Positions 8,501 to 54,930 are shown, counted from the first letter of the stretch. The stretch is DNA of 64,000 nucleotides from Pseudomonadota bacterium (GCA_052387815.1 JBQTIU010000024.1:3028-67027), one strand, 5' to 3'. A program made the numbers and translations. Notes: generated by a model from the sequence alone, not told the origin.

Positions 8501-8505
8501 AAAAC

Positions 8506-9309: not shown

Positions 9310-9365
9310 CGATATACGGCGACCGGCGCCGATGTGCGCACGGCGCGGGCGAGGCGAGTGCCGCA

Positions 9366-26074: not shown

Positions 26075-27381
26075 ACCGTGGCCGCCCGCTTGGCGCGAGC
26101 CAACGCCGGACCGGAGGCGATGAGACCCTGATAGTCCGCGGCGATGGTCTCGATGCGGAATCCCGCCACGAAGTCGGCGGCGGTTGCGGGATCGACCGGC
26201 GGCGGATCGAGCACGAAATCGAGGGCCCGCGCCACCGCGGCCGCGGTTGGTGCGCCGCTCGCCGTCAGTGTCATCGCCGCCGGGTAGCGGGCCAGGAACT
26301 CGGCTGCGGTGTCCCCGGGCCCGCTCGCGAGGTTGAGGATCGGCTTGCCGAGGCTCGCATACTCCACCAGCTTGCTGGGCAACTGGTGCGGCGTCGCGTT
26401 GCCGATATTGACCAGCACGTCGGCCTCGCGCATGGCTTGCGCGACCTCCTCGCGCGAGACGAGGCCGTGGAGATGGAGCCGCCTTCCAACCAGCGGCCGG
26501 TAGGGTCGGAACGACTCCGCGGCATCATTGAGGCTGCCGAAGAAATGCAGGTGGAGGCCGTCGTGACGCCGCGCCAGGGCGTCGAACAGCGCCAGCAGGA
26601 AATCGGGCCGCCGCACCCTCCGGTACAGCGTGCCGACATAGACGAGGTGCCGCCCCGCCGCTCCGAGCCGCAAGCGGGCGGACGCTTGCGGCAGCGACAG
26701 CAGCGGCCCGATCACCATGATCCTACCGACGCAAGCGGCGAAGGCCGCCTCGTAGGCCCGCCGGCAGCCTTCGACGGTGACCGCGACCGCGTCCGCGCGC
26801 GCCAGGATCCCGGCTTCGGTGCGGCGGTTGAGCCGGCCGTACAGCACCCGGTTGTTGAGCGCGATATCGTCCGGCAGGCTGAACGGATCGCCGACATCGG
26901 CGAGCCAGCGCAAGGCGGGAAACTTCCGCTTGACGCCGAGCCCGACCAGGTGGCCGGTGAAGGGATGGGAAACGCTGACCAGCGCCTCGAAGTCGATCGC
27001 CTGGGCGAGCCGCCTCGCCGCGCGGAGCGCCGGCCGATACCACAGGCACGCATAGTCCGGCCACAAGACCTGTTTCAAGGTCGCATCGTAGATCGCCTTG
27101 GCCGCCCGGCCGATGAGCGCGCGGGCGGACCCGGGCGGGCTGGCGAGCGCCTCGCCGTGCGGGCGCCGGCCGATGAGGCCGCGCACGGCCTCGAGCGCGC
27201 CGCCGGCGCGGTGGATATGGACGCCGTGGCGGCGCTCGGCGGGCCGGTCGCCGCTTTTCCAGCCGCTCACGACATGGATCTCGTGCCCGCGCCCGGCCCA
27301 GTGCTCGGCGATCGCCGTCCACCGGTAGGCGCGCGGCGCGCGGTCCGGCCAATAGGCGTAGGTGACGATCAGGACCTTCAT
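26071..27381 (-). CDS. GT4-family glycosyltransferase
   Basis: MKVLIVTYAYWP N-terminus and a GT-B C-terminal domain. It has ATGA overlaps at both ends. Confidence 0.75.
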   Translation of the reverse strand: MKVLIVTYAYWPDRAPRAYRWTAIAEHWAGRGHEIHVVSGWKSGDRPAERRHGVHIHRAGGALEAVRGLIGRRPHGEALASPPGSARALIGRAAKAIYDATLKQVLWPDYACLWYRPALRAARRLAQAIDFEALVSVSHPFTGHLVGLGVKRKFPALRWLADVGDPFSLPDDIALNNRVLYGRLNRRTEAGILARADAVAVTVEGCRRAYEAAFAACVGRIMVIGPLLSLPQASARLRLGAAGRHLVYVGTLYRRVRRPDFLLALFDALARRHDGLHLHFFGSLNDAAESFRPYRPLVGRRLHLHGLVSREEVAQAMREADVLVNIGNATPHQLPSKLVEYASLGKPILNLASGPGDTAAEFLARYPAAMTLTASGAPTAAAVARALDFVLDPPPVDPATAADFVAGFRIETIAADYQGLIASGPALARAKRAATV

Positions 27382-29348
27382 CGCTTGAGCAGCACACCGT
27401 AGCCGGGCGAGATCGGAAGCGGTGGCTGGAGGCTCGCACTCGTCTCGTCGCGGCCGGTGCAAACGATCGCGGCGGGCGGTCCGGCATCGGCCTTCTCGGT
27501 GCGGTCCTCGATCACGATCGAGGTCTCGCCGACCGCCACCTGCCGCGTGATGACCTTGCCGAAGCCGCGATGGCTGCCCAAGAACCCGTCGGGCGCGAAG
27601 CGGTGGCAGCACGCCAGCGGGTCGTCGGGCAGCCAGAACAGGCCGCGGTCAAGCCGCGCCGGCTCGGCCGCGCCCAGCCGCGGCGCGAAATGCGCCTTGA
27701 CCGAGCGGTAGCGGTTCCGCGCCTCGGGGTCGGGCGTGTAGACATAGGTGCCGGGGTCGACGATCCAGTCCTCGCCGTCGATCGCCAGCTCGACCGCGAG
27801 CTGATCGTTGTGGGCGTGGCCGCCGCGCCCGCGCTGGCCGATCGCCCCGCAGCGGATGAGCAGGTAGAGCCGGCGCGAGCGATAGAGGTAGAGCCCGAAA
27901 TCGGGGAAGGCTTGCAGCGCGAGGCCGTCGCGCAGGCTGCCGCCCGGGGCGACGATCTCGATGCGGGCGAGCAGGTTGGGCGCGGCCGGGGGCGGCGAAA
28001 GGTCGAGCCGCGGGACGGCGACGGGCGGCGCCGGCGGCAGCGTGCGACCGCCGGCGAGCGCGCGCACGACCGCGGTCTCCAGGCGGTCAGGCGCGGCGTC
28101 GCCGAACAGCCCCGCTACCGCCGCGACCAGGCTGCGATGGTCGAGGGCGTCCTCGTCCCAGTAGGTCGTCCCGGGCGCAAGCCCGTTCCAGTTGGCGAGC
28201 GTGGCATAGCGCCGCTTTGCCTCGGCGACGCTGATGGCGCGATAGACCGGGGCGAGCTTGAGGAACCGGCCGCTGTCGTTGTCGCCGATCTGGGGCGAGC
28301 GGCCCGACGGCTTGGCGATCGCCTGCGTGAACCGGGCCATGCCGGCGAGGCGCCGGATGTGGCGCTCCGAAAAGGGTCCGGGCAGGATCGCGGTCGTGTA
28401 GACGACCATCTCGGCCGACAGCGCGTGATAGCAGGTCGAAGCCTCGAAATTCGAGCCGTCGTCGTTGAACTGGGCCTCGACCTCGGCCGCGAGCTCGCGG
28501 GCGGCGAAGTCGCGCCAAGCGTCGGTCTCGGGGCCGGCCGGCAGCCAGTGGGCGCAAAAGGCCAGGCCGCAAATGTCGGCGAGATAATGGTTGGCGCGCA
28601 AGCTGCCGAGGGTCTCCAGATTGGCGGCGATGTGGCGGGCGTGTTCGCGGATAGAGCGCGCGAGCACGGCCTCGAAGGCGGCATCGAAGCGCGTGCCCGC
28701 GCCCTCCAGGAGCGCGCGCGCGATGAGCCAGTTGACCGCCCGGATCGCCACATCCATGGCTGTGCGCCAGTTGCCGCCGAAGCGCGGCGGGTTGGTGGCG
28801 ATGAAGTCGAGGATCTGGTTGCGGATCTCGCGCGCGTTGGTTCCGGGGGCGGCGAACCCTGGCTCGCCGGAAGCGGCCAGGCGATAGGCGAGCGCCAGTT
28901 GCGGCAGGTGCTGCATGCGCGCGAGTTCCCACGGTACCTTGATGTCGGCGCCGGGCGCATGCCCGAAGGGCACGTCGAGATACCAGCAATCCTCCCGCCA
29001 GCGAGTGCCCGACTTGACATCGAGCTGCCAGTCGATGGGCCGGTAAGCGGGGTCGTCGATCAGCCGCCAGATGCGTTGCGCCTCGGCGAGGTTGGCGGCG
29101 TTGATCCGGCCCTCGAGCCAGGCGGCTGCATCGGCGCCCTCGCGCCCGACCTCCACCCAGCCCGAGCCCAGGAGGTCGAAGCGGTGGGCGAGATAATGCG
29201 GCGTGACCCCGGCGAGCCAGGTGCGGTGGGGGGCAATCGCCGCGAGGGGCGGCGCGAGCGGCCGCTCCAAGAGCATGCCGCCGTCTTTGGCATAAGTGGA
29301 GCGCGCGCCATCGCGCCGCCGGGCCACGAAGGCGCGGGCGTGGCGCAT
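27378..29348 (-). CDS. heparinase II/III-like (alginate-lyase-fold) protein
   Basis: Alpha/alpha-toroid plus beta-sheet pattern typical of the Hepar_II_III family (WELARMQHL..., NHYLADICGLAF..., GHAHNDQLA). The start is uncertain, either ATG 29348 or 29639. Confidence 0.6.
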   Translation of the reverse strand: MRHARAFVARRRDGARSTYAKDGGMLLERPLAPPLAAIAPHRTWLAGVTPHYLAHRFDLLGSGWVEVGREGADAAAWLEGRINAANLAEAQRIWRLIDDPAYRPIDWQLDVKSGTRWREDCWYLDVPFGHAPGADIKVPWELARMQHLPQLALAYRLAASGEPGFAAPGTNAREIRNQILDFIATNPPRFGGNWRTAMDVAIRAVNWLIARALLEGAGTRFDAAFEAVLARSIREHARHIAANLETLGSLRANHYLADICGLAFCAHWLPAGPETDAWRDFAARELAAEVEAQFNDDGSNFEASTCYHALSAEMVVYTTAILPGPFSERHIRRLAGMARFTQAIAKPSGRSPQIGDNDSGRFLKLAPVYRAISVAEAKRRYATLANWNGLAPGTTYWDEDALDHRSLVAAVAGLFGDAAPDRLETAVVRALAGGRTLPPAPPVAVPRLDLSPPPAAPNLLARIEIVAPGGSLRDGLALQAFPDFGLYLYRSRRLYLLIRCGAIGQRGRGGHAHNDQLAVELAIDGEDWIVDPGTYVYTPDPEARNRYRSVKAHFAPRLGAAEPARLDRGLFWLPDDPLACCHRFAPDGFLGSHRGFGKVITRQVAVGETSIVIEDRTEKADAGPPAAIVCTGRDETSASLQPPLPISPGYGVLLKR

Positions 29349-29419
29349 GGCAAAGCCCCCGGCCCGGCGCCAGACGGCGCCGGGCGGCAGGCGCCGGGCC
29401 TTCTCGAGAGTGGCGCGGA

Positions 29420-30253
29420 TCACCGCGGGGCCGCGGTGGCTCGCCAGCGCCGCTCGCTCAAGCGCTTGCGCCACCTGCCCCAGGCGTTGCGCCCCCGCAC
29501 CGCCCCGCTCGGCGGCCCGGCCGGCTCGAGGACGAACATCCAGTCGCTGTTCATCCAATGCGGCAGGCGGTCGGCGATGCGCGCGTTCCAGGCGACGACA
29601 AGCGGCGAGCGCAGCAGCAGGTCGAGCCCCCAGCCGCACAGGAAGGTCGAGGGCGCGTACCGGCGCACCTTGAGGCCGCTCGCCGCGAACAGGCGCACGA
29701 GCCCGCCCATGGAAAAGAAATTGACGTGCGGGCTGGTCGCAAGGGTCATCTCGGGCTCGTTCGCCTGCGGCTCGTCCAAGAGCGCGCGTTTGAGCGCGCG
29801 CAGAGGGCGCGCGAGCCCCGAGAAATGGAGGCCCAATTCGATCAGCGCCATGATCTCGAACGGGCCGTAGCCGTTCGGAGTGGTCAAGACCACGCGCCCG
29901 CTCTGGGCCAAGTTACGGCGCAGGGACACAAGGAAACCGAGCGGGTCCTCGACATGCTCCAGGACTTCGGCGGCGACGATCAGGTCGAAGACGCCGCCCC
30001 CCGGCAGCGCCGCGAAATCGTCAAAGGCGAGGTTGGGAAGCGGCGCCTGCGCGCGCGCCCAGGCGATCGAGCGCGCGTCGGTATCGACGCCGAGCACGGA
30101 GATGCCGGGGAAGGCCTTGGCGAGCGGCCGGGTGAGCTGCGCGCCGGTGCCGCAGCCGACGTCGAGGATGCGGCGGGGCGTGAGCTCGCGCACCGCGCGG
30201 GCGACGAACTCGAGCCGCTTGGCGTGCCCGTAGGCGTTCTCAGGCAGCGACAA
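29420..30253 (-). CDS. class I SAM-dependent methyltransferase
   Basis: ILDVGCGTGAQL motif I and VVLTTPN post-II region. Confidence 0.7.
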   Translation of the reverse strand: MSLPENAYGHAKRLEFVARAVRELTPRRILDVGCGTGAQLTRPLAKAFPGISVLGVDTDARSIAWARAQAPLPNLAFDDFAALPGGGVFDLIVAAEVLEHVEDPLGFLVSLRRNLAQSGRVVLTTPNGYGPFEIMALIELGLHFSGLARPLRALKRALLDEPQANEPEMTLATSPHVNFFSMGGLVRLFAASGLKVRRYAPSTFLCGWGLDLLLRSPLVVAWNARIADRLPHWMNSDWMFVLEPAGPPSGAVRGRNAWGRWRKRLSERRWRATAAPR

Positions 30254-37701: not shown

Positions 37702-38471
37702 CACGCCCAGATCTTCCACGCCGCGCGGCCGCTCGCCCACAGCGCCTCGAGGAGCTGCTTCTCGCGCAGCGTGTCCATGGGCTGCCAGAACCCGTCGTGG
37801 CGGTAGGCCATGAGCTGGCCGTCGTTGGCGAGCCGCTCGAGCGGCTGCTGCTCGAGCATCGCGTCGTCGCCGGCAAGATAGGCGAACACGTCCGGCTCGA
37901 AGACGAAGAAGCCGCCGTTGATCCAGCCCTCGCCGATCTGCGGCTTCTCCGCGAAGCGCTTGACGGTATCGCCTTCGATGTCGAGGCCGCCGAACCTGGC
38001 GGGAGGACGGACCGCCGTCACGGTGGCGAGCTTGCCGTGCCCGAGGTGGAAAGCGAGCAGTTTGCGGAGGTCGATATCGGCGACCCCATCGCCGTAGGTG
38101 ACCATGAACCGGGTCGAGCCCAGAAGGCTCGTCAAGCGCAGGAGCCGGCCGCCGGTCAACGTATCGAGGCCGGTATCGATTACCGTGACCCGCCACTCCA
38201 CCCGATTCGGCGACAAGATCGTCGTCTTGCCCGACTTGAGGTCGATGGTGAAATCGCTGCTGCGCACGAAGAAATCGTGGAAATACTCCTTGATGGCTTC
38301 GGCTTTGAAGCCGCACGCGACGATGAACTCCTTGAAGCCGTGGGCGGCATAGATGTTCATGATGTGCCAGAGCATCGGCTTGCCGCCGATCTCGACCATC
38401 GGTTTTGGCCGCGCCGACGTCTCCTCGGCCAGGCGCGAGCCGGTGCCGCCGGCGAGAATGACGACTTTCAT
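37701..38471 (-). CDS. rfbF: glucose-1-phosphate cytidylyltransferase
   Basis: MKVVILAGGTGSRL...KPMVEIGGKP N-terminus and 256 aa, typical of RfbF/DdhA. Confidence 0.85.
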   Translation of the reverse strand: MKVVILAGGTGSRLAEETSARPKPMVEIGGKPMLWHIMNIYAAHGFKEFIVACGFKAEAIKEYFHDFFVRSSDFTIDLKSGKTTILSPNRVEWRVTVIDTGLDTLTGGRLLRLTSLLGSTRFMVTYGDGVADIDLRKLLAFHLGHGKLATVTAVRPPARFGGLDIEGDTVKRFAEKPQIGEGWINGGFFVFEPDVFAYLAGDDAMLEQQPLERLANDGQLMAYRHDGFWQPMDTLREKQLLEALWASGRAAWKIWA

Positions 38472-39403
38472 CGATCGAGGTTCATGGCAACGGCCTTCCG
38501 GAACACGGCGAGATGCGATTCGCCGGCGAGTCCGTGGCGCTGGAGCTCGAACGCGATCGGCGCAAGCGCATCGACGGCGAGCCGCCGCGCGAAATTGCTG
38601 CATTTGTGGAGAATCGCGCCCCTGCCGGCGGGGCGGGCATGGCGCAAAAGATACAGTTTATATTGCGCGCGGTTGATCGGCTCAGTCCGGTAGTCGATGA
38701 AGTCAAGGCCGAACCGTTCGGCCGCGACCTCGAAGCAAGACTTGCGCCACAGTGTGGCATGGTGAGGCGGCAGGTTGAGGTAGTTGCCGACCAGCTCTCC
38801 CACGAACCCGTCCTGGTTCGGCAGGGAGACCAGGAGGAATCCATCGGCCGCGAGCTTAGCGGCACCGGCGCGGAAAAACGCGGCCGGATCGGCAAGATGC
38901 TCGACGACGTGGAACGCCACGATGGCCTCCTGTCCCGGTTCGACCGATTCGAGCGCATGATCGGAGACCGGGAGGTCGACCTTACGAGCTGCGGCGACAG
39001 CGGCAGGGTTGAACTCTAGCCCCTCGACCCTCGCAATGGCGTGCCGCGCCTGGTTCAGAAAATCGCCGCGCCCGGCACCGAGTTCCAGCACGCTATCGAC
39101 TCCCGCCTGGACCAGGACCTCGATCGCTACCGCCCATTCCCATCTCCCCGCGCTGTAATAGGGCGCCCAATCGGAAAGCCGCGCGTAGAGAGACGCCGGT
39201 CCAATCATCGCGGGAACGAACCGGTGCAGGCCGCAGCCCGCGCACCGCCGTTGTTCGAGCGCCGGCGGCAAGTCGGGAAAATCCGCATCGATGTCGTAGC
39301 CGAATCCGCGCCAATAGGTACGAATGCCGGCGACCGGGACCGGCGGTTCGCCGACATAAGCAGGGCTCCCGCACAGCGGACACAACGACCCGTCAGCTGG
39401 CAT
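38468..39403 (-). CDS. class I SAM-methyltransferase with an N-terminal CxxC...CxxC zinc ribbon
   Basis: CPLCGS...CAGCG zinc ribbon followed by a LELGAGRGDF SAM motif. The start is ATG 39403. Confidence 0.6.
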   Translation of the reverse strand: MPADGSLCPLCGSPAYVGEPPVPVAGIRTYWRGFGYDIDADFPDLPPALEQRRCAGCGLHRFVPAMIGPASLYARLSDWAPYYSAGRWEWAVAIEVLVQAGVDSVLELGAGRGDFLNQARHAIARVEGLEFNPAAVAAARKVDLPVSDHALESVEPGQEAIVAFHVVEHLADPAAFFRAGAAKLAADGFLLVSLPNQDGFVGELVGNYLNLPPHHATLWRKSCFEVAAERFGLDFIDYRTEPINRAQYKLYLLRHARPAGRGAILHKCSNFARRLAVDALAPIAFELQRHGLAGESHLAVFRKAVAMNLDR

Positions 39404-41087
39404 CGGCCGCCGCGGCCTCGATATAGTCCACGTCCCCGCCTTGCGCCCACCTGCTGAAGCGCTCAAGATCGCCGTTGCGCCTTGCCTCGTCGAGGGAGCG
39501 CGCCACCGCGACCAGGTTGTGATCGAGCGGATGCCCGCCGCGTTCGGTGTGGTCGAGGAACGCCGACTTGAAGCTGCGCATGCGCCAGGGCCGCAGCACG
39601 AAGGCGGCATGGGCGTGGCGGCGCGCGAGCTCGCGTTCGGCCTCGGTCATGGGCGCAAGCAAGTGCAGCCGCGCGAGGCGCTCGAGGTACTCTGCCGCGG
39701 ACGCCGAATCGACCGTGAAGCCGAGTCCTGAATAACGGCCCGTGCCGGCGGTGAGCGTCGGCTTGCCCAAGCAGGGGAGTTCCATGCCGGCGGTCCCGCG
39801 CACGGTCACCCCGTAATCGGCGAATTCGAACAGCGAGCGCGTCGAGATGTCGCTGTCGGGATAGAGCAACTTGACGTGGGGGGGCAGGGCGCCCACGCGC
39901 GCGCGGATGAGGCCGAGCTCCGAGTATTCGCCCTCGACCCCCTCGCGCGCCCGCTTCCACAGATTGGCCGGGTGGAGCTTGACGAGCCAGTTGAGGTTGG
40001 GGTTGGCCGCGAGCGCCCGGACCGTCTCAGCGAACCAGTCGCCGTAGTCCTCGAACAGATCCTCGCCGAAGAACAGGTTAGCATCCCACAGCACGGGCGA
40101 GAACACGACGGCCGTTTTCTTCGCCGGGTCCAGGGTGAGGCGTGCGCCGATCGCGGCCCGGTGGGCGTCGCGCACCCCGGGCTGGTTGCGGCTTTGCAGG
40201 AACCATTTGCCGCTGTAGCGGTCGGCGAACATGCGGTCGACCTCATCGTCCTCGCGCGCCGTCCACGGCCGCCGCAGCACGGCTTTGAAGGTGGCGGGCG
40301 ATACCGAGGACGGATGCATGCGGCGCGTCTCGGCGGTCAAGCGCTTCAGCGTCAGCGCGTCGTCGCGCCACGGCTGGACCACCTGGATGACGCCCGCTCC
40401 GTCGGCGATCAGGCGGTCGACGACCGGGCCGTTGGTGGCGTAATTCGCCTCGATGACCAGGCCCAATTCCGCGCGCACGGCCGCGACCAGGCGTTCGGCC
40501 ACCACGACGCGGGCAAGGAGCCCCGGCAGCGTGGCGGCGATCTCGGCGTGCGTGCCGGGCTGGCGCGGGTCGGGCGCGCCCTCGTGGCGCTGGCGCGATA
40601 CGGTGGCCAGGATCTGGGGCCCGATCCACGAGCCCTCGAACCGCCACTGCTTGACCGCCTGGAACGACATGTCGCCGGCGAGGAGCCGCGTCGCCTCCGC
40701 GGCGGCGCGTTCCCGCTCGGCGTCGGCGGGCGGGAACTCGTCGAGATAGACGAAATCGCCGATGCCGAAGGCGCGGAAGTAGCGCTGCGCCCGGGTGTTG
40801 GTCCGCGAGTTGGTCAGCACGACCGGCCGCCAGCCTTCAAGCTTTAGGGCCGCCCCCAGCATCGCCTCAAGCTTCATCTGGTAGACCATGTCGGTGTTCG
40901 ACACGATCAACAGGCGCTTGGCCGCGGCTGGCGGCTCGGGCATTGCCGACCTCAGCCAGGCGATTTCGGCCACGGTCTTGAGATAGTCGGCGCGCACGGC
41001 CCGTTCCGTCTCCGGATCGCGAAGCCCGCGCGCGAGATCGATGAGGGCGGGCCCGAGGATCGGCACCCGGGCGATGTGCCTACGCAT
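39393..41087 (-). CDS. Capsule_synth-family protein (KpsC/KpsS-like putative Kdo/nonulosonate transferase)
   Basis: 564 aa with a WLVKLHP...motif and overall architecture resembling PF05159 capsule-biosynthesis (beta-Kdo transferase) proteins. It is adjacent to the NeuA/B/C homologues. Family assignment is from memory only. Confidence 0.4.
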   Translation of the reverse strand: MRRHIARVPILGPALIDLARGLRDPETERAVRADYLKTVAEIAWLRSAMPEPPAAAKRLLIVSNTDMVYQMKLEAMLGAALKLEGWRPVVLTNSRTNTRAQRYFRAFGIGDFVYLDEFPPADAERERAAAEATRLLAGDMSFQAVKQWRFEGSWIGPQILATVSRQRHEGAPDPRQPGTHAEIAATLPGLLARVVVAERLVAAVRAELGLVIEANYATNGPVVDRLIADGAGVIQVVQPWRDDALTLKRLTAETRRMHPSSVSPATFKAVLRRPWTAREDDEVDRMFADRYSGKWFLQSRNQPGVRDAHRAAIGARLTLDPAKKTAVVFSPVLWDANLFFGEDLFEDYGDWFAETVRALAANPNLNWLVKLHPANLWKRAREGVEGEYSELGLIRARVGALPPHVKLLYPDSDISTRSLFEFADYGVTVRGTAGMELPCLGKPTLTAGTGRYSGLGFTVDSASAAEYLERLARLHLLAPMTEAERELARRHAHAAFVLRPWRMRSFKSAFLDHTERGGHPLDHNLVAVARSLDEARRNGDLERFSRWAQGGDVDYIEAAAADAS

Positions 41088-41796
41088 GGCGGGCGTGCCG
41101 GCGCGCGGCGATCAGCAGCTCGGCGAGGCGCAGGTCCCAGGGGTCGTCGATGTCGAGCGAATCGCGTTCGTCCATGACGTAGCCGACCGAAGGATTCCCA
41201 TAGAGCGCGCCGCGGCCGAGTACGGCCGAGCGCACGATCAGGATCGCCGGCCCGTTGCGGGCGAACACCCTGGGCTTGTCCTGGCGGCGCAGGAGCTCGG
41301 GGCCGGGCCGGAACGGGGAGAGCACGCCGTCCTTCATGGTCAGTATCGAGACCGGATTGAAGCGGTGCGGCACCTCGACGACGCTGACCACGGTCTCCGC
41401 GCCGGCCCGCTCCATGAGCTCGATCGCCTCGTCGATATGCCGGCTCTCTCGCATGGGCGAGGTCGGCTGCAACAGCGCCACGGCCTCGACCTCGAGGCCC
41501 TCGCCGCGGGCCCAATCGAGGGCGTGGCGCATCACCGGCAGCATCGGCGCCTCGTCGCGGGCGAGCTCGGGCGGCCGCAGGAACGGCACCTCGAGCCCGA
41601 GCGAGCGCCCCACTGCCGCGATCTCGGGATCGTCGGTGGACAAGAGCACGCGGCCTAGGCGCTTGGCGGCGAGCGCCGCCTCGACGGTGTAGGCGAGAAG
41701 CGGCCGGCCGGCCAAGGGCGCCACGTTCTTGCGCGGGATCGCCTTCGAGCCGCCGCGCGCCGGGATGAGGCCGAGGACAGCGGAGCCGTCAATCAT
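41080..41796 (-). CDS. neuA: CMP-nonulosonate (acylneuraminate) cytidylyltransferase family
   Basis: LIPARGGSKAIPRKN P-loop-like motif as in NeuA/PseF/LegF, and 238 aa. Confidence 0.8.
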   Translation of the reverse strand: MIDGSAVLGLIPARGGSKAIPRKNVAPLAGRPLLAYTVEAALAAKRLGRVLLSTDDPEIAAVGRSLGLEVPFLRPPELARDEAPMLPVMRHALDWARGEGLEVEAVALLQPTSPMRESRHIDEAIELMERAGAETVVSVVEVPHRFNPVSILTMKDGVLSPFRPGPELLRRQDKPRVFARNGPAILIVRSAVLGRGALYGNPSVGYVMDERDSLDIDDPWDLRLAELLIAARRHARHA

Positions 41797-42903
41797 AAAG
41801 CCGTCGGCCGCGCAAGACGTTGCGCAGGCCCATCAGCGGCCGCTCGGCGGCGGCATGAACCAGCGTTGAAGCCGCGAGGGTTACGAGGAAAACGAATGCG
41901 AAGGCGATCGGTCCTGCAAGCGAGAGAAAAACCGAAATAGAAATGATCGGCACATGCAACAGGTAAACCGCGTAGGTGACGTCGCCGAGGCGCCGGTCGA
42001 CAAGCTTGACCCTGTCGGAAGGCGGAACGGCGATCAGAGCGCACAGCAAGGCGACGCCGGCGACAAACAAAACGGTTGTGGTCACGCTGTCGATCATGGG
42101 CGCATGGAGATTGTATTGGTAGTAGTGGTGCCCCGCCTGTACCAACGCGAAGAAGCCCAACAGAAACATGTGAAACCGGCGGCGCGTGGCATAGAAATAC
42201 ACCGCTGAGCCAAGGAGAAAATAGGGCGCGAACTGCAGGATGCCGTAGAACCTCACATAGCCGTTCATCCACCAGACGAAAGGGTAGAACGCGAGCGCCG
42301 CGACCGCCACGGCGCCCAAGCACCACTGGCGATCGGCGAGCGCGAACACGAGCCCGGCGAGAATGTAGAAGATGAGCTCGATGACGACCCAGCCGGCGAT
42401 CGGGATCACCAGGAGGTTGTTGCCTTGGCGCAGATAGGCGGGCAGCAGCGTCATATTGACGAAAAGCGCCCAGGGGTCGACACGTATAGGGAGCAACCCT
42501 ATGTCGATCGTGGGTATTCCCAACCCGATGAAAAGCGCATAGGCGAGAGCGGCGGCGACCCACCAAGTGGGGTAGATTCTGAGGAACCGATTGACGAGAA
42601 ACCGGCCGAACGACTTGCAATAGAACAGATCGAGGGCCTCGGATATGACGAAGCCGGAGACGACCAGGAACAGAAAACGCCAATGTTCCCCAAAGCCAAC
42701 GGTCGCAGATTCCCGGGCAGATACCCGCTCGTGTGGCTTACGAACACGAGCATCGCAAGCAGGAACCGGAACGAGCCGAGGAACCGGTAAGGATGGGCGA
42801 CGAAGCCAGCTCCGCGGAGGTCGGCAGGGGTCGCCGCCGGGATGTCTTCTTTCTTTATGGCAAGCGTGGCGTCCTTCGAAAGACTCATGGGTCCGGGCGT
42901 CAA
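41789..42903 (-). pseudogene. acyltransferase-3 (OafA-like O-acyltransferase) gene interrupted by a frameshift at an A4/T4 homopolymer near 42674-42677
   Basis: The N-terminal 75 codons (MTPG...LGNIGVF) are in one frame (ORF 42499..42903). The rest (FLFLVVSGFVISE...RIYPTWW, about 296 codons) is in another frame (ORF 41789..43054). Joined, they give a normal acyltransferase-3 of about 370 aa. Confidence 0.6.
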
Positions 42904-44051
42904 TACGCGATCCGCTTCTGGATGCCGACGGTCTTGGTCGACAGGATGTCGGCGATCCGCTGGCCGGCGTTGCCGTCGCCGTAGATCGCGTCCATGGCGT
43001 AGCGGCCGTGCTGGACCTGGCGGCGGATCGCAGCGGCGATCGCGCCCCGCTCATGGGGCGCGTCGATGACGTTGTGGCCGCGCTCGCGTCCCGCCTGCCG
43101 GGTGCCGATGTTGGCCACCGGCGCGCCGATATAGGCGCCCTCGCGGATGCCGCTCGACGAGTTGCCCACCAGGCACGCGGCGCGGGCCATCAGGCCGATA
43201 TAGGTCTCGGCCGGCAGGTTCTTGAAGAAATGCATGCCCCGGGCAAGGCCCCGCTCGCGCCACTTGCGGATGCCGCGGGCGATGTGCTCGGACCCGGCAT
43301 CGGCGTTGGGCCACAGGACGATGGCGGGGAGCCCCGTATCGCTGACCGCTTCGAGGCTCGCCGTGATCTGGCGCTCGCCCTCGCCGTATTCGGTCGTCAC
43401 CGGATGCTGGGCCACCACCAGGAACGGCCGCTCGAGGTCGAAACGCTCGCCGACCCCCAGCCTGAAAATGTCGGGACCAAGCGCCGCCTCGCCGTTGGCC
43501 AGGGTCTCGGCCACGAGATCGACGCGCGGGCACCCCACGAGGTGGACGTCCTCCGCGCGCTCGCCCAGCCTGATGATGCGCTCGCGCGCCCCGGGGCTGG
43601 CCGGGAAATGGATGTGGGCGAACTTGGTGACGGCATGCCGGATGCTCTCGTCGATCGTCCCCGAAACCTCGCCGCCCATGGTGTGCGCGATCGGGATGTT
43701 CATGTAAGCGGCGGCGAGGGTGGTCGCCATGGTCTCGAAGCGGTCGCCGACCGTGAGCACGATGTCGGGCTTCAGGCTCTCGAACACGGTGGGGAGTTCG
43801 AGCAGCCCGAGGCCGGTCGACTTGGCCATGGTCGCGGGCGTCTCGCCCTCGATCAGCATGTGGACCTTGGCCGCCGCCTCGAAGCCGTCGCGCTCGATCA
43901 GGTCGACGACCGCCCCGTAGCGGTCCAAGAGCGCCGAGGCGCCGACCACGACCTGGAGCGTCAAGTCGGGATGGGCCGCGATCGCCCGCATCGCCGACTT
44001 GATGGAGCTGTAGTTGGCGCGCGAGCCGACGACGACGCAAATCTTTCTCAA
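42900..44051 (-). CDS. neuC: UDP-N-acetylglucosamine 2-epimerase (hydrolysing), NeuC/LegG family
   Basis: RKICVVVGSRANYSS...HTMGGEVSG...HLVGCP motifs. There is no in-frame ATG; the predicted TTG start at 44051 forms a TTGA overlap with the neuB stop. Confidence 0.8.
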   Translation of the reverse strand: MRKICVVVGSRANYSSIKSAMRAIAAHPDLTLQVVVGASALLDRYGAVVDLIERDGFEAAAKVHMLIEGETPATMAKSTGLGLLELPTVFESLKPDIVLTVGDRFETMATTLAAAYMNIPIAHTMGGEVSGTIDESIRHAVTKFAHIHFPASPGARERIIRLGERAEDVHLVGCPRVDLVAETLANGEAALGPDIFRLGVGERFDLERPFLVVAQHPVTTEYGEGERQITASLEAVSDTGLPAIVLWPNADAGSEHIARGIRKWRERGLARGMHFFKNLPAETYIGLMARAACLVGNSSSGIREGAYIGAPVANIGTRQAGRERGHNVIDAPHERGAIAAAIRRQVQHGRYAMDAIYGDGNAGQRIADILSTKTVGIQKRIAY

Positions 44052-45040
44052 CTCAAATCCGTCCGTGCGAGCTTGTGGTCGGCGGGCAGCGCCCGGGCGG
44101 CGCGCCGGCCGACGACGTCCTGCCAACGGGCGGCCGAGATGCCGTCGCCCGGCTTCTTGAAGGCGAGGTCGGCGCGCGTCAGCGCCGTGCCGGCCGGGAT
44201 GGGCCGCGCGGTGACGATGCTCTTTTCGAAGATGCGCTTCATGTCGCGATAGGGGCCGAGGTCGTCCTTGTCGACGGGATGGCCCAGCATCGCCCACACG
44301 TCCCGCAAGGCCTCGGCGAGGCGCTTGAAGTCGGCGGGCTCCATGGCATTCGCCGCGTCGCTGCCATACATCAGGCGCGAGAAGGTGAAATGCTTCTCGA
44401 TGACCGTGGCGCCGAGCGCCGCGGCGGCGAGCGCGGCGGCGGGGCCGTCGGTGTGGTCGGAAAAGCCGACCGCCACCCCGTAGCGGGCCCGCATTTCGCC
44501 AAGCACGTTCAAGCCGACGCGCTCGGGCGGACAGGGGTAGAGCGAGCTGCATTGCAGGACGACGAGCGGCCCGCCGCGCCGCAACACCGCGACCGCGGCG
44601 TCGAGCTCCGCCCAGTCGCTCATGCCCGAGGACAACAGAACCGGCTTGCCGGTGGCGGCAATCCGTTCGAGGAGCGGCAGGTTGGTGACCTCGCCCGAGG
44701 GAATCTTGTAGGCGCCGACTCCGACCTCCTCCAGGAGGTCGACCGCCTCGAGGCTGAACGGCGAGGACAGGAACTCGACCTTGTGCGATTCCGCATGCGC
44801 CTTCAAGGCCCTCCACTGGTCGAGGGAAAACGCCGTGCGGCGGAAATAGGCGGCGCGCGGCTCGGCCTGGAAATAGGGCGGCGGCGGCGCGTCGGCGAGC
44901 GTCTCGGCCGCGGCGATGTGGGTCTGGAACTTGACCGCGTCGGCCCCGCACGAGGCCGCCGCCTCGATGAGCCTCGAGGCGTTGCCGAACGAGCCGTCAT
45001 GGACCGAACCGAGCTCGGCGATGAGCGAGCATGGGCGCAT
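44048..45040 (-). CDS. neuB: N-acetylneuraminate synthase family (NeuB/LegI/PseI)
   Basis: TIM-barrel NeuB motifs (IAELGSVHDGS, KFQTH) and a C-terminal antifreeze-like (SAF) domain. Confidence 0.85.
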   Translation of the reverse strand: MRPCSLIAELGSVHDGSFGNASRLIEAAASCGADAVKFQTHIAAAETLADAPPPPYFQAEPRAAYFRRTAFSLDQWRALKAHAESHKVEFLSSPFSLEAVDLLEEVGVGAYKIPSGEVTNLPLLERIAATGKPVLLSSGMSDWAELDAAVAVLRRGGPLVVLQCSSLYPCPPERVGLNVLGEMRARYGVAVGFSDHTDGPAAALAAAALGATVIEKHFTFSRLMYGSDAANAMEPADFKRLAEALRDVWAMLGHPVDKDDLGPYRDMKRIFEKSIVTARPIPAGTALTRADLAFKKPGDGISAARWQDVVGRRAARALPADHKLARTDLS

Positions 45041-45049: not shown

Positions 45050-46087
45050 CTAGGCGCGACCGAGAATCCGCCGCAAGCCTCCATAGACGGCATAAGGGAC
45101 CTTCTGCCAGGTGCGGTTGAGCCAGCGCTCGATGGGCGGGCGGGAGAGCGCACCTTCGATCGCCCGGATGTCCGCCTCGGGCGTCAGTCGGGCCTCCTCC
45201 ATGAGGCCGATGGCGAACGAATTGAAGCCGTAGACGAGCGCGATCGCGGCGAGGCGCTGGCGCGTCTCGGCCGACAAGTCCGTCCGCTCGGGATCGATGA
45301 CGAAGATGGCGTCGCCGGCGTGGATCAGGCGCCGGTCCGCCATGGCGGACAGCCTCGTGGGCGCGCGCGTATAGGCCTGATGGCCGAGCTCGAGGTCGAT
45401 GAGGCGCATCCCGTGGTCGCGGAGATAGACGTGCTGGTCGCCGAGCAGCGGGTGCTCCCGGTAGTAGGGGACGGCGACGAACTCGGTATACACGAACAGG
45501 ATGCGGCCGCGCTCGAGCAGGCCCTCGGCGCCTTTGAGGACCCTGAGTTCCGCCCCCTCGGTGTCGATTTTCAGGAAATCCACGGTCGCCTCGGGGTCGA
45601 GCACCCGGTCCAGCCGCCGGCACCGCATCGGCAAGGTGCGGTTGACCTTTCCGTGCACCTCGAGGAACGACTTGCCGGACCGGCGGTCCTTGCGTGGATA
45701 GGTCTGAAAGATGCGCACGCCGATCTCCGGCTGGGTCTCGCCCATCATGGTGCAGGCGCCGGGGCCCGCGGTGACGTAGAAGGGGCGCTCCTCCTCGCGA
45801 TCCCAGGCCGCGCAGTCGAAGTAGCGCAGCGAGCGGAAGGCCGGCATCCTCATGCCCGCCTTCATGGCATCGGTGTCGCCAGCCACCAGCTTGCGGTACT
45901 CCTCAGGGTTCGGTTCGAAGCCGATCAAGTCCGCGCGGCGGGTATAGGAGGCGGGGAGGAAGAACATGCCGTTGCGGGCGCCGACATCGACGACGGTCGG
46001 CGCGATTTTGGCCTCCTCCAGCGGCGCGAACACGATGTCGCCGACCGTCCGTCCGGTGGCCGTGCGGTAATCGAGGCTGTTCAGCAT
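45050..46087 (-). CDS. FkbM-family methyltransferase
   Basis: VDVGARNGMFF...IGFEPNP motif. The start is ATG 46087, preceded by GGGAGG; the alternative is GTG 46171. Confidence 0.65.
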   Translation of the reverse strand: MLNSLDYRTATGRTVGDIVFAPLEEAKIAPTVVDVGARNGMFFLPASYTRRADLIGFEPNPEEYRKLVAGDTDAMKAGMRMPAFRSLRYFDCAAWDREEERPFYVTAGPGACTMMGETQPEIGVRIFQTYPRKDRRSGKSFLEVHGKVNRTLPMRCRRLDRVLDPEATVDFLKIDTEGAELRVLKGAEGLLERGRILFVYTEFVAVPYYREHPLLGDQHVYLRDHGMRLIDLELGHQAYTRAPTRLSAMADRRLIHAGDAIFVIDPERTDLSAETRQRLAAIALVYGFNSFAIGLMEEARLTPEADIRAIEGALSRPPIERWLNRTWQKVPYAVYGGLRRILGRA

Positions 46088-46121
46088 GCGGGCAAACCTC
46101 CCAAGATCGTTGCCCTTAAGC

Positions 46122-47099
46122 TCAGGTCGCCTTGAGGCGCAAAGTTGGCTGCGCCTTGACGGAGGTGGCACCGAGCGCCCGCAGAACGTCGTTGCCGTCG
46201 AGCGCGAATTCGTCGGGGTTCGGCGGGATGGCAGCCTCGGTCGGCGCGCGCTCGCGCACCACCACGGTGGCCGGAAGGGCGGCGCGCCAAATCGCCAACT
46301 GTAGCTGGTGGCTCAGTCGGTTGGTGCTGCGCGAATCGTCGAGCACCACGAGCCGCAAGGTGGCGGCGACGTCGTCGAGGATCGGGGTCCAGTCGTCGAT
46401 GAGCAGGCCGTTCACGGAAAACAGGGAGGCCCGCATCCCCTTCTCCGCCATCTGCCGGGCGAGCCGGCGGCCTTGCGGGAAGGCGAGATTGAAGCAGACG
46501 ATGGTGGCGTCGGGCCCGCTCGCATAGCGGAACAGGGCGCCGTCGCCGAAGCACTCGACCGGTCCCTCGACGGCCTCGATCTCGTGGCGCAACAGCCGCT
46601 GGCTCACGGCGATGATCCGGAAGCCGGGGGCGACGAGATGCCGGCCGAAGATGGCGTCGGCGTCGTGACGGTTGCTCACCGTATAGGCGGGGATGCGGGC
46701 CATCGAACAGAAATCCCCGAGATTGTTGAGGCGCGATTGCGGCCCCTCGAAGCCGCTGTCGACGACGGCGGCGACGATGGAAAAGGACGCCCGCGGGGGA
46801 TAGAGCCGCACCATGTTGTAGGTGTTGACCAGATGGTCCGTCGACAGCAGGAGGAAATCCTGCTGCTTCATGAAAAAGGCCGAATCGACCCCTTCCAGCA
46901 TCAACCCGAAGCCCATGCCGACCAGCGCGTTCTCGCAGTTGGGCGTGTTGATGACCTTGAGCCCGTCACGGCTCTCCAGCCCCGCGGTCAGCCCAGCCAG
47001 CCGGCTGCCGGCGGCGATGTTCTGGCCGTAGAGTACGAAGGGCGCGCGGCCGGCCAGGAGCTTGCGGACCAGCGCGTTGAGGTAGCCGACGTAAGTCAT
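46122..47099 (-). CDS. TPP-enzyme E1 beta-subunit-like (transketolase C-terminal-like) protein
   Basis: MTYVGYLNALVRKLL...FVLYGQNIAAG pattern of 2-oxoacid dehydrogenase E1-beta and split transketolases. ATGA overlap with the alpha-like gene. Confidence 0.7.
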   Translation of the reverse strand: MTYVGYLNALVRKLLAGRAPFVLYGQNIAAGSRLAGLTAGLESRDGLKVINTPNCENALVGMGFGLMLEGVDSAFFMKQQDFLLLSTDHLVNTYNMVRLYPPRASFSIVAAVVDSGFEGPQSRLNNLGDFCSMARIPAYTVSNRHDADAIFGRHLVAPGFRIIAVSQRLLRHEIEAVEGPVECFGDGALFRYASGPDATIVCFNLAFPQGRRLARQMAEKGMRASLFSVNGLLIDDWTPILDDVAATLRLVVLDDSRSTNRLSHQLQLAIWRAALPATVVVRERAPTEAAIPPNPDEFALDGNDVLRALGATSVKAQPTLRLKAT

Positions 47100-50652: not shown

Positions 50653-51417
50653 TCAGCGAATGCGTCGCACAAAACCACCCCGCCAATAAGTCACCCACCG
50701 GTCGACCTGACCCTCGTTAAACGCAAACGGCGGCTCTACGATCGCGAAGTCAGGGTTTAGCGCCACGAATGCCTCCGCCGCCGCTTTCGGATGGTTCCAA
50801 CTCCAATCAGGTGCGGTTCGCGGGCCGCCCGCGACCAACTCTTTGATCCCGTCGGCAGCAATAATGTACGACCCAACGGAGACCAGGGAGGCATAAGCTT
50901 CGAGTTCGGCCAACACGTGATCCTTGGTGTGATTGCTGTCGAGGATGACCAGCACTTTTTCTCCGGGGGCAACCAATCGGCAGACTCGATCGACTGTGGC
51001 TGGAGCAATCGAACTACCCTCAACCAATGTGATGAACGGGAACAACTCATGCGCTTGGATCGCGACGAGATTGTGCGGCCGAATCTCGATGTCGATGCCG
51101 ATGACGCGACCACGTCCAATCAGCCGACAAAGGCTGGCATAGAACACCAGCGAGCCTCCGTGCGCGATTCCCGTCTCGACGATCACGTCGGGCTTGATCG
51201 AATAGACCACCTCCTGCATCCTGACCAGGTCCTCGGCAAGCTGAATGATCGGACGGCCGAGCCACGTGAAGCTATACACGTGCTTAACGTCCCAGCCACA
51301 ACGCAGCCACGCTTCTGACGCCAAAGCGAAGGCCTCCGGCGAGCTCATCGGATAGACGACTTCAGTACCGTCGCTTTCGACGATCACCACTGACCGCTCC
51401 GAGTCGATTTTGATCAC
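50653..51417 (-). CDS. CmcI/cephalosporin-hydroxylase-family class I methyltransferase (sugar O-methyltransferase-like)
   Basis: VIVETGIAHGGSLVFYA motif as in CmcI/rhamnosyl O-MT family. GC content is clearly lower than in neighbouring genes. Confidence 0.7.
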   Translation of the reverse strand: MIKIDSERSVVIVESDGTEVVYPMSSPEAFALASEAWLRCGWDVKHVYSFTWLGRPIIQLAEDLVRMQEVVYSIKPDVIVETGIAHGGSLVFYASLCRLIGRGRVIGIDIEIRPHNLVAIQAHELFPFITLVEGSSIAPATVDRVCRLVAPGEKVLVILDSNHTKDHVLAELEAYASLVSVGSYIIAADGIKELVAGGPRTAPDWSWNHPKAAAEAFVALNPDFAIVEPPFAFNEGQVDRWVTYWRGGFVRRIR

Positions 51418-51562: not shown

Positions 51563-53470
51563 CTAGGCCTCGAATACCAAATCTTCGTACCGGCGCTCGT
51601 CCCGCGGCGGCTGGCCGGGCAGGAGGCGCGGGATTTCCTTGCCCTTAAAGTCGCGGGTCCGCAAGTCGTCGACCGCCAACCCGAACGCCTCGAGCCGTTC
51701 GCGCCAATAGTTCGAGCCGTCGAGCTTCGCCTGCAGCCGGTCGATGACGCCGGGCTCGATCGTGCCGTCGAGCTTGTGCTGCAGATAGCCGATGAAATAC
51801 AAGGCCAGGCCGTGCTCGGGCGAGATGACGTCGCGAAGCGTGTTCAGGTTCTTGAGCTGCTGCTCGATCTTCGCCGGCCGGTCCTCGGAGAACAGGCGGT
51901 GAAAATTGAGGTGATAATTCATGTAGAACCAGATGTCGGTGATTTGCTGCGGCGTCGGCACCGCATCCATGGGGATGGCGCAAAACGCCTCTTCGAACCC
52001 GACGGTCGCCAGGCGCAGGCCGAGGTCGATCTCGTCCTGTTTGCCGTAGCCCCCGGCCATGAATCGCACTTCCGAGCTGCCGACGTTCTGGATGAGCCCC
52101 TGCTCGACCATCGAGTCGTAGATGGGCGTGTTGGGAAGTGGCTGGAGCGGCGTGATCCCGCACCAGTCGAGGTCCATGTGGCGCGCGACGTTGATGGTGT
52201 CGTTGATCATCGCCAGGGTCTCGCCCGGGAACCCGATCATCAGGAACACGCGGGAGTGGATCTGCTCGTAGCGCCGCAGGACCTCGGCCGCGGCGAGGAA
52301 GGTGCGCACCGTGCCCGGCTTCTTGATCTGCCGCAGGACCACCGGGTTTCCGGATTCCATCCCGATGTTGAGCGCGATGCAGCCGCTTTCGGCCATGGCG
52401 TGCACGATCTCATCGGTGCACGAGGCGGCGATCAGCCCGTTGGTCGCATCCCAGGTCATGCCCAGCCGGCGTTTGACCATGCCGTTGAACAGGGCGATCG
52501 CGCGGGCGTGGTCCTTCAACAGATCGTCGTCGAGCCAGACGAAATGGCCGATGCCGTGCTCGTTTTTCAACAACTCGAGCTCGTCGAGCACCGAATCGAC
52601 CGAACGCTGCCGGACCGCCTTGCCGTTGAAATTCCGTACGCTGCAGAAAGTGCACTGGGCACGGCAGCCGCGGTTCGAGAGCACGGTGGCAAAACGCGTG
52701 CCGGGCGGCTTGAAGCCGTGGAAATTGCCGATGACGCCGACCTTAGAGAGATCGCGGACGTTGAACAGATCGTAGGCCGGGATGACGTCAATTTCCCCGG
52801 CCGTGGGCTGGCACTGGGCAAGGAACCGGAACCGTTCCCGCCCATCGTCGAGGATCACCTGCCCGAGACCGGTCGGTCCGAGTTCGCCGCCGACCGCCCG
52901 GCAGAACAGCTTGATGGCGACATCGCCCTCCCGCAGGAAGGCGATCCGTGCCGCCTTGATGTCGTCGAGCACGCGCTCGACGTCGTTGTTCACATGCACC
53001 CCGCCGATGGCCACCGGGATGCCCGAAAGCGCCGCATGTTCGCACACGCGCTTCAACGAGGCGTGCGTCATGGTGAACATGCACGTCACGCCGATCAAAT
53101 CCGGCTTGAAGCCCGCGATGGCGTCGTCCAGGGCCGCCTGCCAAGTGCGGTCGAAATCGAACTCCCGCTTCGAGGCGGCGGCGCGCGCCGCCTTCAGGAC
53201 CTCGTCGTTCAGGTTGACGATCTTGGGCTCGACGCCGATCGCGCGCAGGTGCTGCGCCAGCACGCCCAAGCCATAGGGCGGATAGTTGGGATAGCGCTTG
53301 CGCCGTGCCGTCGCAAAGCGGAACAGGCCGGACTCGCCGTCGGGCGGGTTGACCAACAGGACGCGCTCGATCTTGCCGCGCGGGAAATGGCGAGCGAAAA
53401 AGGCCTCCACCGCCGCCGCGTCGTGCGGCACCGACAAGGGATCGACGGCAACCGATGCGCACCCGCTCAT
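51563..53470 (-). CDS. B12-binding-domain radical SAM protein (class B radical SAM methyltransferase-like)
   Basis: N-terminal cobalamin-binding Rossmann region, then a CxxxCxxC cluster motif (RGCRAQCTFCSV). 635 aa from ATG 53470. Confidence 0.8.
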   Translation of the reverse strand: MSGCASVAVDPLSVPHDAAAVEAFFARHFPRGKIERVLLVNPPDGESGLFRFATARRKRYPNYPPYGLGVLAQHLRAIGVEPKIVNLNDEVLKAARAAASKREFDFDRTWQAALDDAIAGFKPDLIGVTCMFTMTHASLKRVCEHAALSGIPVAIGGVHVNNDVERVLDDIKAARIAFLREGDVAIKLFCRAVGGELGPTGLGQVILDDGRERFRFLAQCQPTAGEIDVIPAYDLFNVRDLSKVGVIGNFHGFKPPGTRFATVLSNRGCRAQCTFCSVRNFNGKAVRQRSVDSVLDELELLKNEHGIGHFVWLDDDLLKDHARAIALFNGMVKRRLGMTWDATNGLIAASCTDEIVHAMAESGCIALNIGMESGNPVVLRQIKKPGTVRTFLAAAEVLRRYEQIHSRVFLMIGFPGETLAMINDTINVARHMDLDWCGITPLQPLPNTPIYDSMVEQGLIQNVGSSEVRFMAGGYGKQDEIDLGLRLATVGFEEAFCAIPMDAVPTPQQITDIWFYMNYHLNFHRLFSEDRPAKIEQQLKNLNTLRDVISPEHGLALYFIGYLQHKLDGTIEPGVIDRLQAKLDGSNYWRERLEAFGLAVDDLRTRDFKGKEIPRLLPGQPPRDERRYEDLVFEA

Positions 53471-53706
53471 GATCCGGAACCCCGAGTCATTCGCTGTTGT
53501 CGTCCTTGGGCCGACCCGCCCGTTTGCCGCGCCTTCGGCCGTCACCCCGATCTCTTGGGAATAGTACGGCGAACCGCCCGGCGGAACAAGCGATTACCCG
53601 AATGGAGCGTCCACATATCCAAGAACATACCTAGAAATGGCTATATTCGAACACCGACTTGCCCGCTGTTGCCAATACCTTTCCGGGCCACCCGGCGAGG
53701 GCCCGC

Positions 53707-54930
53707 TCAAATCTCCCGCACGTCGGGGACCGGCACCAGGAAGCGCCCGCCTCGGCGCCGGTACTCCGCCTGCTGGGCGACGATCTCCTCGGCGAAGTTC
53801 CAGGCCAGGATCAAGAGGTAATCCGGCCGGTCGGCGAGCAATCGATCGGGCGCCACGACCTCGATATGGGTGCCGGGGGTCAACCGGCCCTGCTTCAACG
53901 GGTTGCGGTCGGCGATATAGTCGATGTCCGCCGGCCCCAGCTCGAGAAAGCTTAGCAGGGTGTTGCCCTTGGCCGGCGCCCCGTAGCCCGCGACCCGGCC
54001 GCCGGCCCGGCGGATGCGTTCGAGCCGCGCCCTCAGGTTCGATTTGTTGGCAAGGATGCGCTGGGCGAAGCCCCGGTAGGTCCCGATGTCGCGCAGGCCG
54101 CGGCGCTCTTCCATGGCGAGCAGCGCGGCCACCCCCGGATCAGGCCTCGCCCGTCCCTGGCGCCGTATCCATGCCCTGAGCTGGCCGTGATGGATCGCCA
54201 AGCGCTCGACGGCGACGATCTCGAAGCCGTGGAGCTGGAACAAACGCTGCATGGGCCCGAGCGACCAATACGACACGTGCTCGTGGTAAATGGTGTCGAA
54301 CGCCAACATGTCGAGGAGGTCCGTGAGGTAATGCGCCTCGAGCACCACCACGCCGTCGGGAGCGAGCGCGAGATCGATGCCGTCGAGGAACCCGTGCAGG
54401 TCGGGGATGTGGGGAAAGGTGTTGGTGAACGCGAACACCCGGACCGGGCCGTGGTCGTCGCGGATGCGGCGCGCCGTCTCGGGGTTGAAGAACGCGGTCA
54501 TGACCTCGATGCCGTTCAAGCGGGCGAACGGCGCGAGATTGGCGGCCGGATCCACCCCCAGCGTGCGCGCCGGGCACGCCCGGCGAAAGCCGTCGAGCAG
54601 CGTGCCGTCGTTGCAGCCGATATCGACGACCAAATCGCCGGGCCCAAGCGGGATTCGCTCGGCGGCCGCGCCGGCGAGAGAGCGCAGATGCTGGGTGAGC
54701 GTGTCGGATGCCGACGACACGTAGAGGTAGTCCTCGAACATGGCCGCGGGCGGGACACGCTCGGTCAACTGGACGTGGCCGCAATCATGGCAGTACCCGA
54801 TCCTGAGCGGGAATTTCGGCTCCGCGGCGGCGGCCAGCTCGGCGGCGGTCACGAACTTGTTCGCCAACGCCATCGGCCCCAAGTCGAGGAACGTCTCGAC
54901 GGTGGCGGAACGGCATACGATGCAGCTCAT
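53707..54930 (-). CDS. NDP-hexose C-methyltransferase (TylC3/EvaC-like, zinc-ribbon N-terminus)
   Basis: CxxC...CxxC N-terminus (MSCIVCRS...CHDCGH), SAM motif VVDIGCNDGTLL, and a C-terminal C-methyltransferase domain. Confidence 0.75.
   Translation of the reverse strand: MSCIVCRSATVETFLDLGPMALANKFVTAAELAAAAEPKFPLRIGYCHDCGHVQLTERVPPAAMFEDYLYVSSASDTLTQHLRSLAGAAAERIPLGPGDLVVDIGCNDGTLLDGFRRACPARTLGVDPAANLAPFARLNGIEVMTAFFNPETARRIRDDHGPVRVFAFTNTFPHIPDLHGFLDGIDLALAPDGVVVLEAHYLTDLLDMLAFDTIYHEHVSYWSLGPMQRLFQLHGFEIVAVERLAIHHGQLRAWIRRQGRARPDPGVAALLAMEERRGLRDIGTYRGFAQRILANKSNLRARLERIRRAGGRVAGYGAPAKGNTLLSFLELGPADIDYIADRNPLKQGRLTPGTHIEVVAPDRLLADRPDYLLILAWNFAEEIVAQQAEYRRRGGRFLVPVPDVREI

Follow-up and report, generated by a model that had tools for sequence, protein, structure and literature searches.

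The 64,000-nucleotide stretch of DNA analysed here (the window in what follows) derives from a Pseudomonadota bacterium (GCA_052387815.1 JBQTIU010000024.1:3028-67027). Its minus strand carries, at 41789-42903, a single gene of the acyltransferase-3 (AT3) family, PF01757, which translation in all frames finds spread over two reading frames, and which is probably a genuine, plain loss-of-function allele of an AT3-only membrane O-acyltransferase. Frame A has its start codon either at TTG 42903, where it overlaps the stop codon TGA 42902-42900 of the neuC-like epimerase gene upstream, or at ATG 42888. Its product reads MSLSKD...AHPYRFLGSFRFLLAMLVFVSHTSGYLPGNLRPLALGNIGVF, with AHPYRFLGSFRFLLAMLVFVSH as an internal part, and ends in ...LGNIGVF, the last codon being TTC 42675-42673; counted from the ATG, the N-terminal in-frame part has 72 aa, and counted from the TTG, 77. 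Frame B, LFLVVSGFVISEALD... / LFLVVSGFVISEALDLFY..., runs from CTG 42673 to TGA 41791-41789 over 294 codons and closes with ...LRGRRLYD, a motif of the subfamily. Base C42673 does double duty as the third base of the frame A Phe codon and the first base of the frame B CTG. One additional A in the plus-strand AAAA at 42674-42677 yields an open reading frame (ORF) of 366 aa with the peptide GVFLFLVVSGF. The original prediction, that one OafA-like AT3 gene is split here by a single-base frameshift and that one extra A restores this peptide, is borne out by Pfam, alignment and BLASTP. Its division into two parts likewise stands, but the fragment sizes given for them (75 and about 296 aa) do not, and are replaced by 72 or 77 and 294. 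The public record (MGQ0663092.1, our P0001) masks the frameshift: it gives a 371-aa 'acyltransferase family protein' that begins at an ATT (41789-42901), its initial 76 residues being a spurious N-terminus translated in the wrong frame, and it ought to carry a frameshift flag.

Against PF01757 the repaired protein scores 53.1 bits (cutoff 31), the match spanning profile positions 6-324 of 326. The C-terminal ORF alone reaches 42.1 bits over positions 50-324 of 326, the N-terminal ORF alone does not match this profile, and its product including the out-of-frame tail has no Pfam match. In BLASTP, residues 27-72 of the N-terminal ORF correspond to residues 15-60 of an intact 369-aa homologue, P0004 (70% identity, E 3e-18), and the C-terminal ORF corresponds to residues 60-369 (E 9e-64), abutting the first match on the same protein. 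An alignment of 20 sequences, i.e. the repaired protein and 19 intact homologues (40-47% identity, with P0033 as an outlier at 30%), is collinear throughout and ungapped at the junction, which is flanked by the invariant residues G67, G70 and V71 on one side and F74, V76, V77, S78 and G79 on the other. Segmentation by codon usage (Viterbi decoding of a hidden Markov model), used in place of ORF heuristics relying on GC content at third codon positions (GC3), which are too noisy for frameshift detection, places a frame switch at 42705/42706, 207 nt ahead of the stop codon of the upstream frame. The match of two frames to one AT3 gene is far beyond chance.

The motifs R/K-X10-H, RXXR and V-x-x-F-F-x-[IVL]-S-G-[FWY] are deemed functionally important in AT3 proteins, and a Ser-to-Leu exchange in the last of them abolishes the activity of Lag-1 (PMC9558356). 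The repaired protein possesses R41-FLLAMLVFVS-H52 in the first transmembrane segment (TM1), with R41 and H52 invariant in the 20-sequence alignment, and R101-F-L-R104 in the first cytoplasmic loop, where the homologues mostly show RxxK. Its V71-F80 motif, VFLFLVVSGF, agrees with nine of the ten consensus positions, with L in place of the second F; among the homologues the form is V[FLM][LC]F[FL]VVSG[FA], mostly VLLFFVVSGF. As encoded, this motif is broken after V71-F72, with its halves in two frames, and the frameshift falls inside the second hydrophobic segment (residues 66-82), the predicted TM2. In a crude hydropathy scan the protein shows 8 strongly hydrophobic window peaks, two of which overlap, so that 7 separate segments remain, besides weaker ones. 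The subfamily, marked by AHPYRFLG...LRGxRLYD, is uncharacterised; it is consistently found between neuC-like and neuA-like genes in metagenome-assembled genomes (MAGs) from soil and of alphaproteobacteria, no NCBIfam model matches it, and a search of PDB sequences returns no relative. The coordinates of the gene, its junction and its neighbours are given in the table.

Features of the AT3 gene and of the surrounding operon (positions in the window)
Feature	Positions	Strand	Remarks
AT3 5' part, frame A	42673..42903	-	TM1 with R41-X10-H52 and first half of TM2; BLASTP against P0004, alignment
Frameshift junction GTTTTC	42673..42678	-	plus-strand A4 at 42674-42677; one base short
Out-of-frame tail of N-terminal ORF	42499..42672	-	57 Ser/Pro-rich codons, then TAG 42501-42499
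AT3 3' part, frame B	41789..42673	-	294 codons and TGA; LFLVVSGF..., RFLR (R101-xx-R104), remaining TM segments; Pfam, BLASTP against P0004, alignment
FkbM methyltransferase	45050-46171	-	head of the listed operon
NeuB-family nonulosonic acid synthase	44048..45040	-	PF03102 1-238 of 241 and SAF domain; TIGR03569 348 bits, below the equivalog cutoff of 400
Hydrolysing UDP-sugar 2-epimerase, NeuC/NnaA type	42900..44051	-	TIGR03568 392 bits (cutoff 236), full length; PF02350 2-346 of 347
CMP-nonulosonate synthetase-like cytidylyltransferase (CTP_transf_3)	41080..41796	-	PF02348; PseF-like TIGR03584 146 bits, below cutoff
Conserved 564-aa protein	39393..41087	-	after the cytidylyltransferase; member of the syntenic module
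Methyltransferase (Methyltransf_23)	38468-39610	-	follows the gene of the 564-aa protein

The observed coding sequence at the junction is GGC GTT TTC TGT..., and G-V-F-L-F-L is restored by either of two single-base additions, namely a T (GTT TTT CTG, the deletion then being T5 to T4) or a C (GTT TTC CTG, CC to C). The two repaired alleles read GTTTTTCTG / GTTTTCCTG, with the trans-frame peptide GNIGVFLFLVVSGF. Homologues have GTC TTC CTG or GTC CTC CTT at this position and no base run. The AT3 gene has 24 TTC against 7 TTT codons (the inserted base being taken to give TTT), and in another 18 long genes of the window the ratio is 344 to 33. This codon preference favours the reading of CC to C, whereas mutation bias favours the homopolymer. 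The lesion is most accurately given as a loss of 1 bp within GTTTT(T/C)CTG, the identity of the lost base being ambiguous. An earlier assignment of the loss to the A run therefore holds in that A/T is possible, but the adjacent C/G is equally so.

The frameshift is probably real and not an artefact. The Logan assembly of SRR34758880 contains a 15.9-kb contig (SRR34758880_4948), retrieved via exact-protein look-ups with the genes neighbouring AT3, with the identical sequence GTTTTCTG at the junction; the comparison is one between consensus assemblies. Its gene call for AT3 is a 221-aa fragment only. The window and this contig differ by two single-nucleotide polymorphisms (SNPs) across 9 kb (47350 and 40723; G/A and A/G), so the contig is a separate consensus and no copy of the deposited one. 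These SNPs point to strain-level polymorphism or a different read set, and the one at 40723 is probably why an exact look-up of the 564-aa protein failed. In the Viterbi segmentation of all 64 kb (about 52 genes) the AT3 site is the sole same-strand frame change away from a stop codon, and the other genes mostly have near-full-length Pfam or NCBIfam matches, none of them appearing cut by a frame break. The opposite explanation, by which the gene of the organism is intact (T5 or CC) and one base was lost in the consensus during sequencing or assembly, is unlikely. It would suit a short homopolymer at the junction, a MAG as source (MGQ0663092.1, 'MAG: ... Pseudomonadota bacterium'), an ORF otherwise undamaged, and a polished long-read assembly, in which a single leftover indel per 64 kb is plausible; it has to contend, however, with the same junction sequence from a different assembler and with about 60 kb of coding sequence devoid of any further frame break. 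A homopolymer-error-prone platform is expected to fail first at long runs. Coding homopolymers of the window comprise 12 of 6-8 bases (including G8 and G7), 74 of 5 and 389 of 4 bases, and only the AT3 run is out of frame; all 12 of the longest class, where platform errors cluster, are in frame. The locus L001 (ena:ERZ25039543 contig_87978) shows many broken gene calls, e.g. Epimerase_2 with 288 aa, CTP_transf_3 with 117 aa and split methyltransferases, as indel-noisy assemblies typically do, but has an intact AT3 gene; with its fragmented NeuC and NeuA-like calls it is quite unlike the clean window. A search for an intact allele of the present gene returned none in the GTDB species genomes (degenerate-peptide scan, and exact DNA pattern with variable gap) and none in the JGI metagenomes (exact DNA pattern with variable gap). 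The exact look-up of P0001 gave no contig, and the cluster of this protein has one member; plasmids were without a megablast match, and tblastn among them gave no more than a hit of 26% identity. Of the causes named in the original prediction, a true frameshift allele is thus upheld by the second assembly, the sole frame break and the intact long homopolymers, and a homopolymer error becomes the less likely one. Some points nevertheless weigh against a genuine loss of function. Both assemblies possibly stem from one run, which would leave room for systematic error in the reads or for an intact allele carried by a minority. The indel aside, the gene is healthy (no internal stops, scored as coding, all motifs kept), which is consistent with a very recent mutation and equally with an error. 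Finally, the acceptor sugar and the acyl group with its donor are proposed from neighbourhood and analogy only.

Two further explanations accept the frameshift and assign it a function. Reversible on/off phase variation of O-acylation, by slipped-strand mispairing at T4/T5 in a sample mostly 'off', is very unlikely. Glycan O-acetyltransferases are classic phase-variable genes, and a 1-bp indel is revertible in principle. Yet oafA of Haemophilus influenzae switches by tetranucleotide repeats (PMC9558356) and neuO of Escherichia coli K1 by a heptanucleotide variable number tandem repeat (PMC3046976), and neither kind of repeat is present in this AT3 gene. It has no hypermutable tract: the run has 4 bases (5 if repaired), the longest run of the gene is A5, and tandem repeats are lacking. 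The run is moreover not kept in relatives (GTC TTC CTG, GTC CTC CTT), and both consensus sequences are 'off'. The AT3 gene is not a contingency locus, and the phase-variable loss suggested earlier is not supported in that sense; reversion is possible at ordinary mutation rates only. A programmed -1 ribosomal frameshift, in which tRNA-Phe slips from UUC to UUU on G-UUU-UC, CUG is read next and full-length enzyme is made at a set ratio, is extremely improbable. A -1 slip at U_UUC would yield the exact consensus peptide GVFLFL, and a stretch of 121 nt around the junction folds with a suggestive z = -3.1. However, C-GUU-UUC is no X-XXY-YYZ heptamer, which leaves single-tRNA slippage on U-UUC as the only conceivable form, and T4 is too short for transcriptional slippage. 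The fold relies on pairing with upstream sequence; the downstream 90 nt have an ordinary z = -1.5, inside the range of other stretches of the same gene (-2.4 to +2.3), and the hairpin GGCUUCG/CGAGGCC consists of SGFVISEA codons conserved for the most part in the intact homologues, whose equivalent regions have z near 0. Programmed frameshifting was rejected on these grounds. All 36 other family members found are, furthermore, called as single ORFs, nearly all of 340-381 aa. A more elaborate proposal regards the break as a regulatory device: low-level -1 slippage of tRNA-Phe would give a small fixed dose of full-length protein and restore coupling to the cytidylyltransferase, so that acylation and sugar supply are tuned together, or, in a milder version, on and off alleles would be kept and revert at the short run. 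This is highly improbable.

The AT3 gene is tightly packed between its neighbours. Between the AT3 stop and the ATG of the cytidylyltransferase (41796-41794) there is an overlap of 8 nt (ATGATTGA), a hint that translation of the two genes is coupled. A 2-epimerase, a nonulosonic acid synthase and a CMP-nonulosonate synthetase are encoded together, as required of a nonulosonic acid module of the neuC/neuB/neuA kind. Around intact AT3 genes the order is FkbM methyltransferase / NeuB / NeuC / (extra 280-aa gene) / AT3 / cytidylyltransferase / unknown protein of 560 aa / methyltransferase / AsnB-like protein; a Stellaceae-type contig (L002 and L003, P0028) has this order, and L001 (P0004) has it in fragmented form. 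Since relatives have AT3 flanked by the same gene order, it is a conserved member of the nonulosonic acid module. Neither Pfam nor NCBIfam nor the PDB sequences yield a match for the 564-aa protein. In L002 and L003 its place is taken by a 560-aa gene (7771-9453), and such a protein of 560-564 aa follows the cytidylyltransferase in every syntenic locus, which makes it a candidate transferase or polymerase of the module.

The intact 366-aa protein, presumably with about 10 TM segments, would accept an acyl group (probably acetyl, with acetyl-CoA as donor) and add it to a nonulosonic acid (sialic- or legionaminic-like) residue of the surface polysaccharide made by the surrounding locus. By analogy with Lag-1, its likely role is O-acylation of nonulosonic acid in the finished or lipid-linked glycan, and the subfamily is a reasonable candidate for a nonulosonic acid O-acyltransferase. 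The 1-bp deletion in GTT TT(T/C) CTG within TM2 would shift the frame after residue 72, with a stop 57 codons on, leaving a stub of TM1 with its His, half of TM2 and a nonsense tail; a restart in frame B could not supply TM1 to the remainder. Because the break lies inside the conserved TM2 motif, the 72-aa stub cannot be active, and with no functional remainder O-acylation would therefore be lost. Ribosomes would terminate at 42499, some 700 nt short of the point where the cytidylyltransferase start overlaps, so that translational coupling would be lost as well; Rho-type polarity on the downstream genes is conceivable. If real, the frameshift means that an uncultured Pseudomonadota population has recently lost one decoration, probably O-acetylation, of a nonulosonic acid surface polysaccharide. 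The same kind of change in pathogens alters serotype, phage susceptibility and complement resistance. Such a loss is a normal micro-evolutionary event, well precedented in bacteria, and involves no new mechanism.

The closest known counterpart is Lag-1 of Legionella pneumophila, an AT3-only O-acetyltransferase that 8-O-acetylates legionaminic acid of the O-antigen (PMC9558356; PMC3766260). It shares with the present protein the single-domain AT3 membrane architecture, the VxxFFx[IVL]SG[FWY] motif and the TM1 His, and its polysaccharide locus likewise holds neuC/neuB/neuA-type genes (PMC9558356; PMC3766260); this likeness is drawn from published motifs and context. Both genes are naturally inactivated, lag-1 among other ways by 1-bp deletion frameshifts (PMC8660822). 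Only 10 of 40 minor alleles of lag-1 are predicted to be full length, most being predicted pseudogenes, and of its knock-outs one strain has a 1-bp deletion frameshift, others having insertion sequences, premature stops or His28Leu (PMC8660822). In contrast to the AT3 gene of the window, which neuC and neuA flank so closely that stop and start codons overlap, lag-1 is situated in a variable part of its locus, away from neuABC. OafA of H. influenzae and OafA, OafB and Oac of Salmonella and Shigella phages share PF01757, R/K-X10-H and RXXR, a similarity at the level of the Pfam family only; Salmonella OafA and OafB differ by a fused SGNH domain, the present protein (366 aa) being AT3-only. The oafA gene of H. 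influenzae Rd was itself first seen as a frameshifted gene (PMC9558356). NeuO of E. coli K1, OatC and OatWY of Neisseria meningitidis, and NeuD are functional analogues that O-acetylate capsular sialic-acid-type sugars, NeuO with a frameshift-based on/off state (PMC3046976). Their folds are, however, unrelated, i.e. soluble left-handed beta-helix or alpha/beta-hydrolase proteins and not AT3 membrane proteins. Natural inactivation of AT3 genes is already documented, and the present case is a further instance, in an uncharacterised subfamily and an uncultured soil-type bacterium.

In composition the AT3 gene (41789-42888) departs from its surroundings. It has 59% GC and a GC3 of 0.73-0.78, where the flanking neuC-, neuB- and neuA-like genes reach 0.90-0.93, and by GC3 its two segments rank among the lowest four of the 53 coding segments that were scored. 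In L001 and L002 the intact homologues share the GC3 of their own neighbours. The repaired protein deviates at 15 of 94 near-invariant columns, compared with 6-8 in equally diverged homologues. Deviations and low GC3 together could hint at relaxed constraint. Decay as a long-standing pseudogene was nonetheless rejected, as a GC3 drop of 14 points should, by rough estimate, bring several stop codons and more indels, none of which is seen. A better fit than decay is a gene of foreign origin (or one exchanged as a cassette), or one with weak codon bias, that lost the single base recently. Low GC3 also occurs in the intact methyltransferase genes RMNT_CmcI (50653-51417, 0.69) and Methyltransf_23 (38468-39397, 0.75). 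The former is barely seen as coding by the codon-usage model, and the polysaccharide locus looks mosaic.

This locus, a single large surface-polysaccharide locus of 45-50 kb on one strand, extends from about 13.5 to 64 kb of the window. It contains a Wzy_C protein, several GT4 and GT2 glycosyltransferases, genes of CDP-glucose and heptose-type pathways and, upstream of the nonulosonic acid module, genes for a PglF-like dehydratase and a DegT aminotransferase. The locus is unusually large, with at least nine methyltransferases, a B12-binding radical SAM enzyme (51563-53545) and a sugar C-methyltransferase (53707-54930), and also includes a heparinase II/III-like protein (27378-29639) and an AsnB-like amidotransferase. 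A DegT/DnrJ aminotransferase ORF at 15454-16971 possesses about 137 residues ahead of its Pfam domain, with coding signal over nearly the whole ORF, and its N-terminus may represent a fused extra domain.

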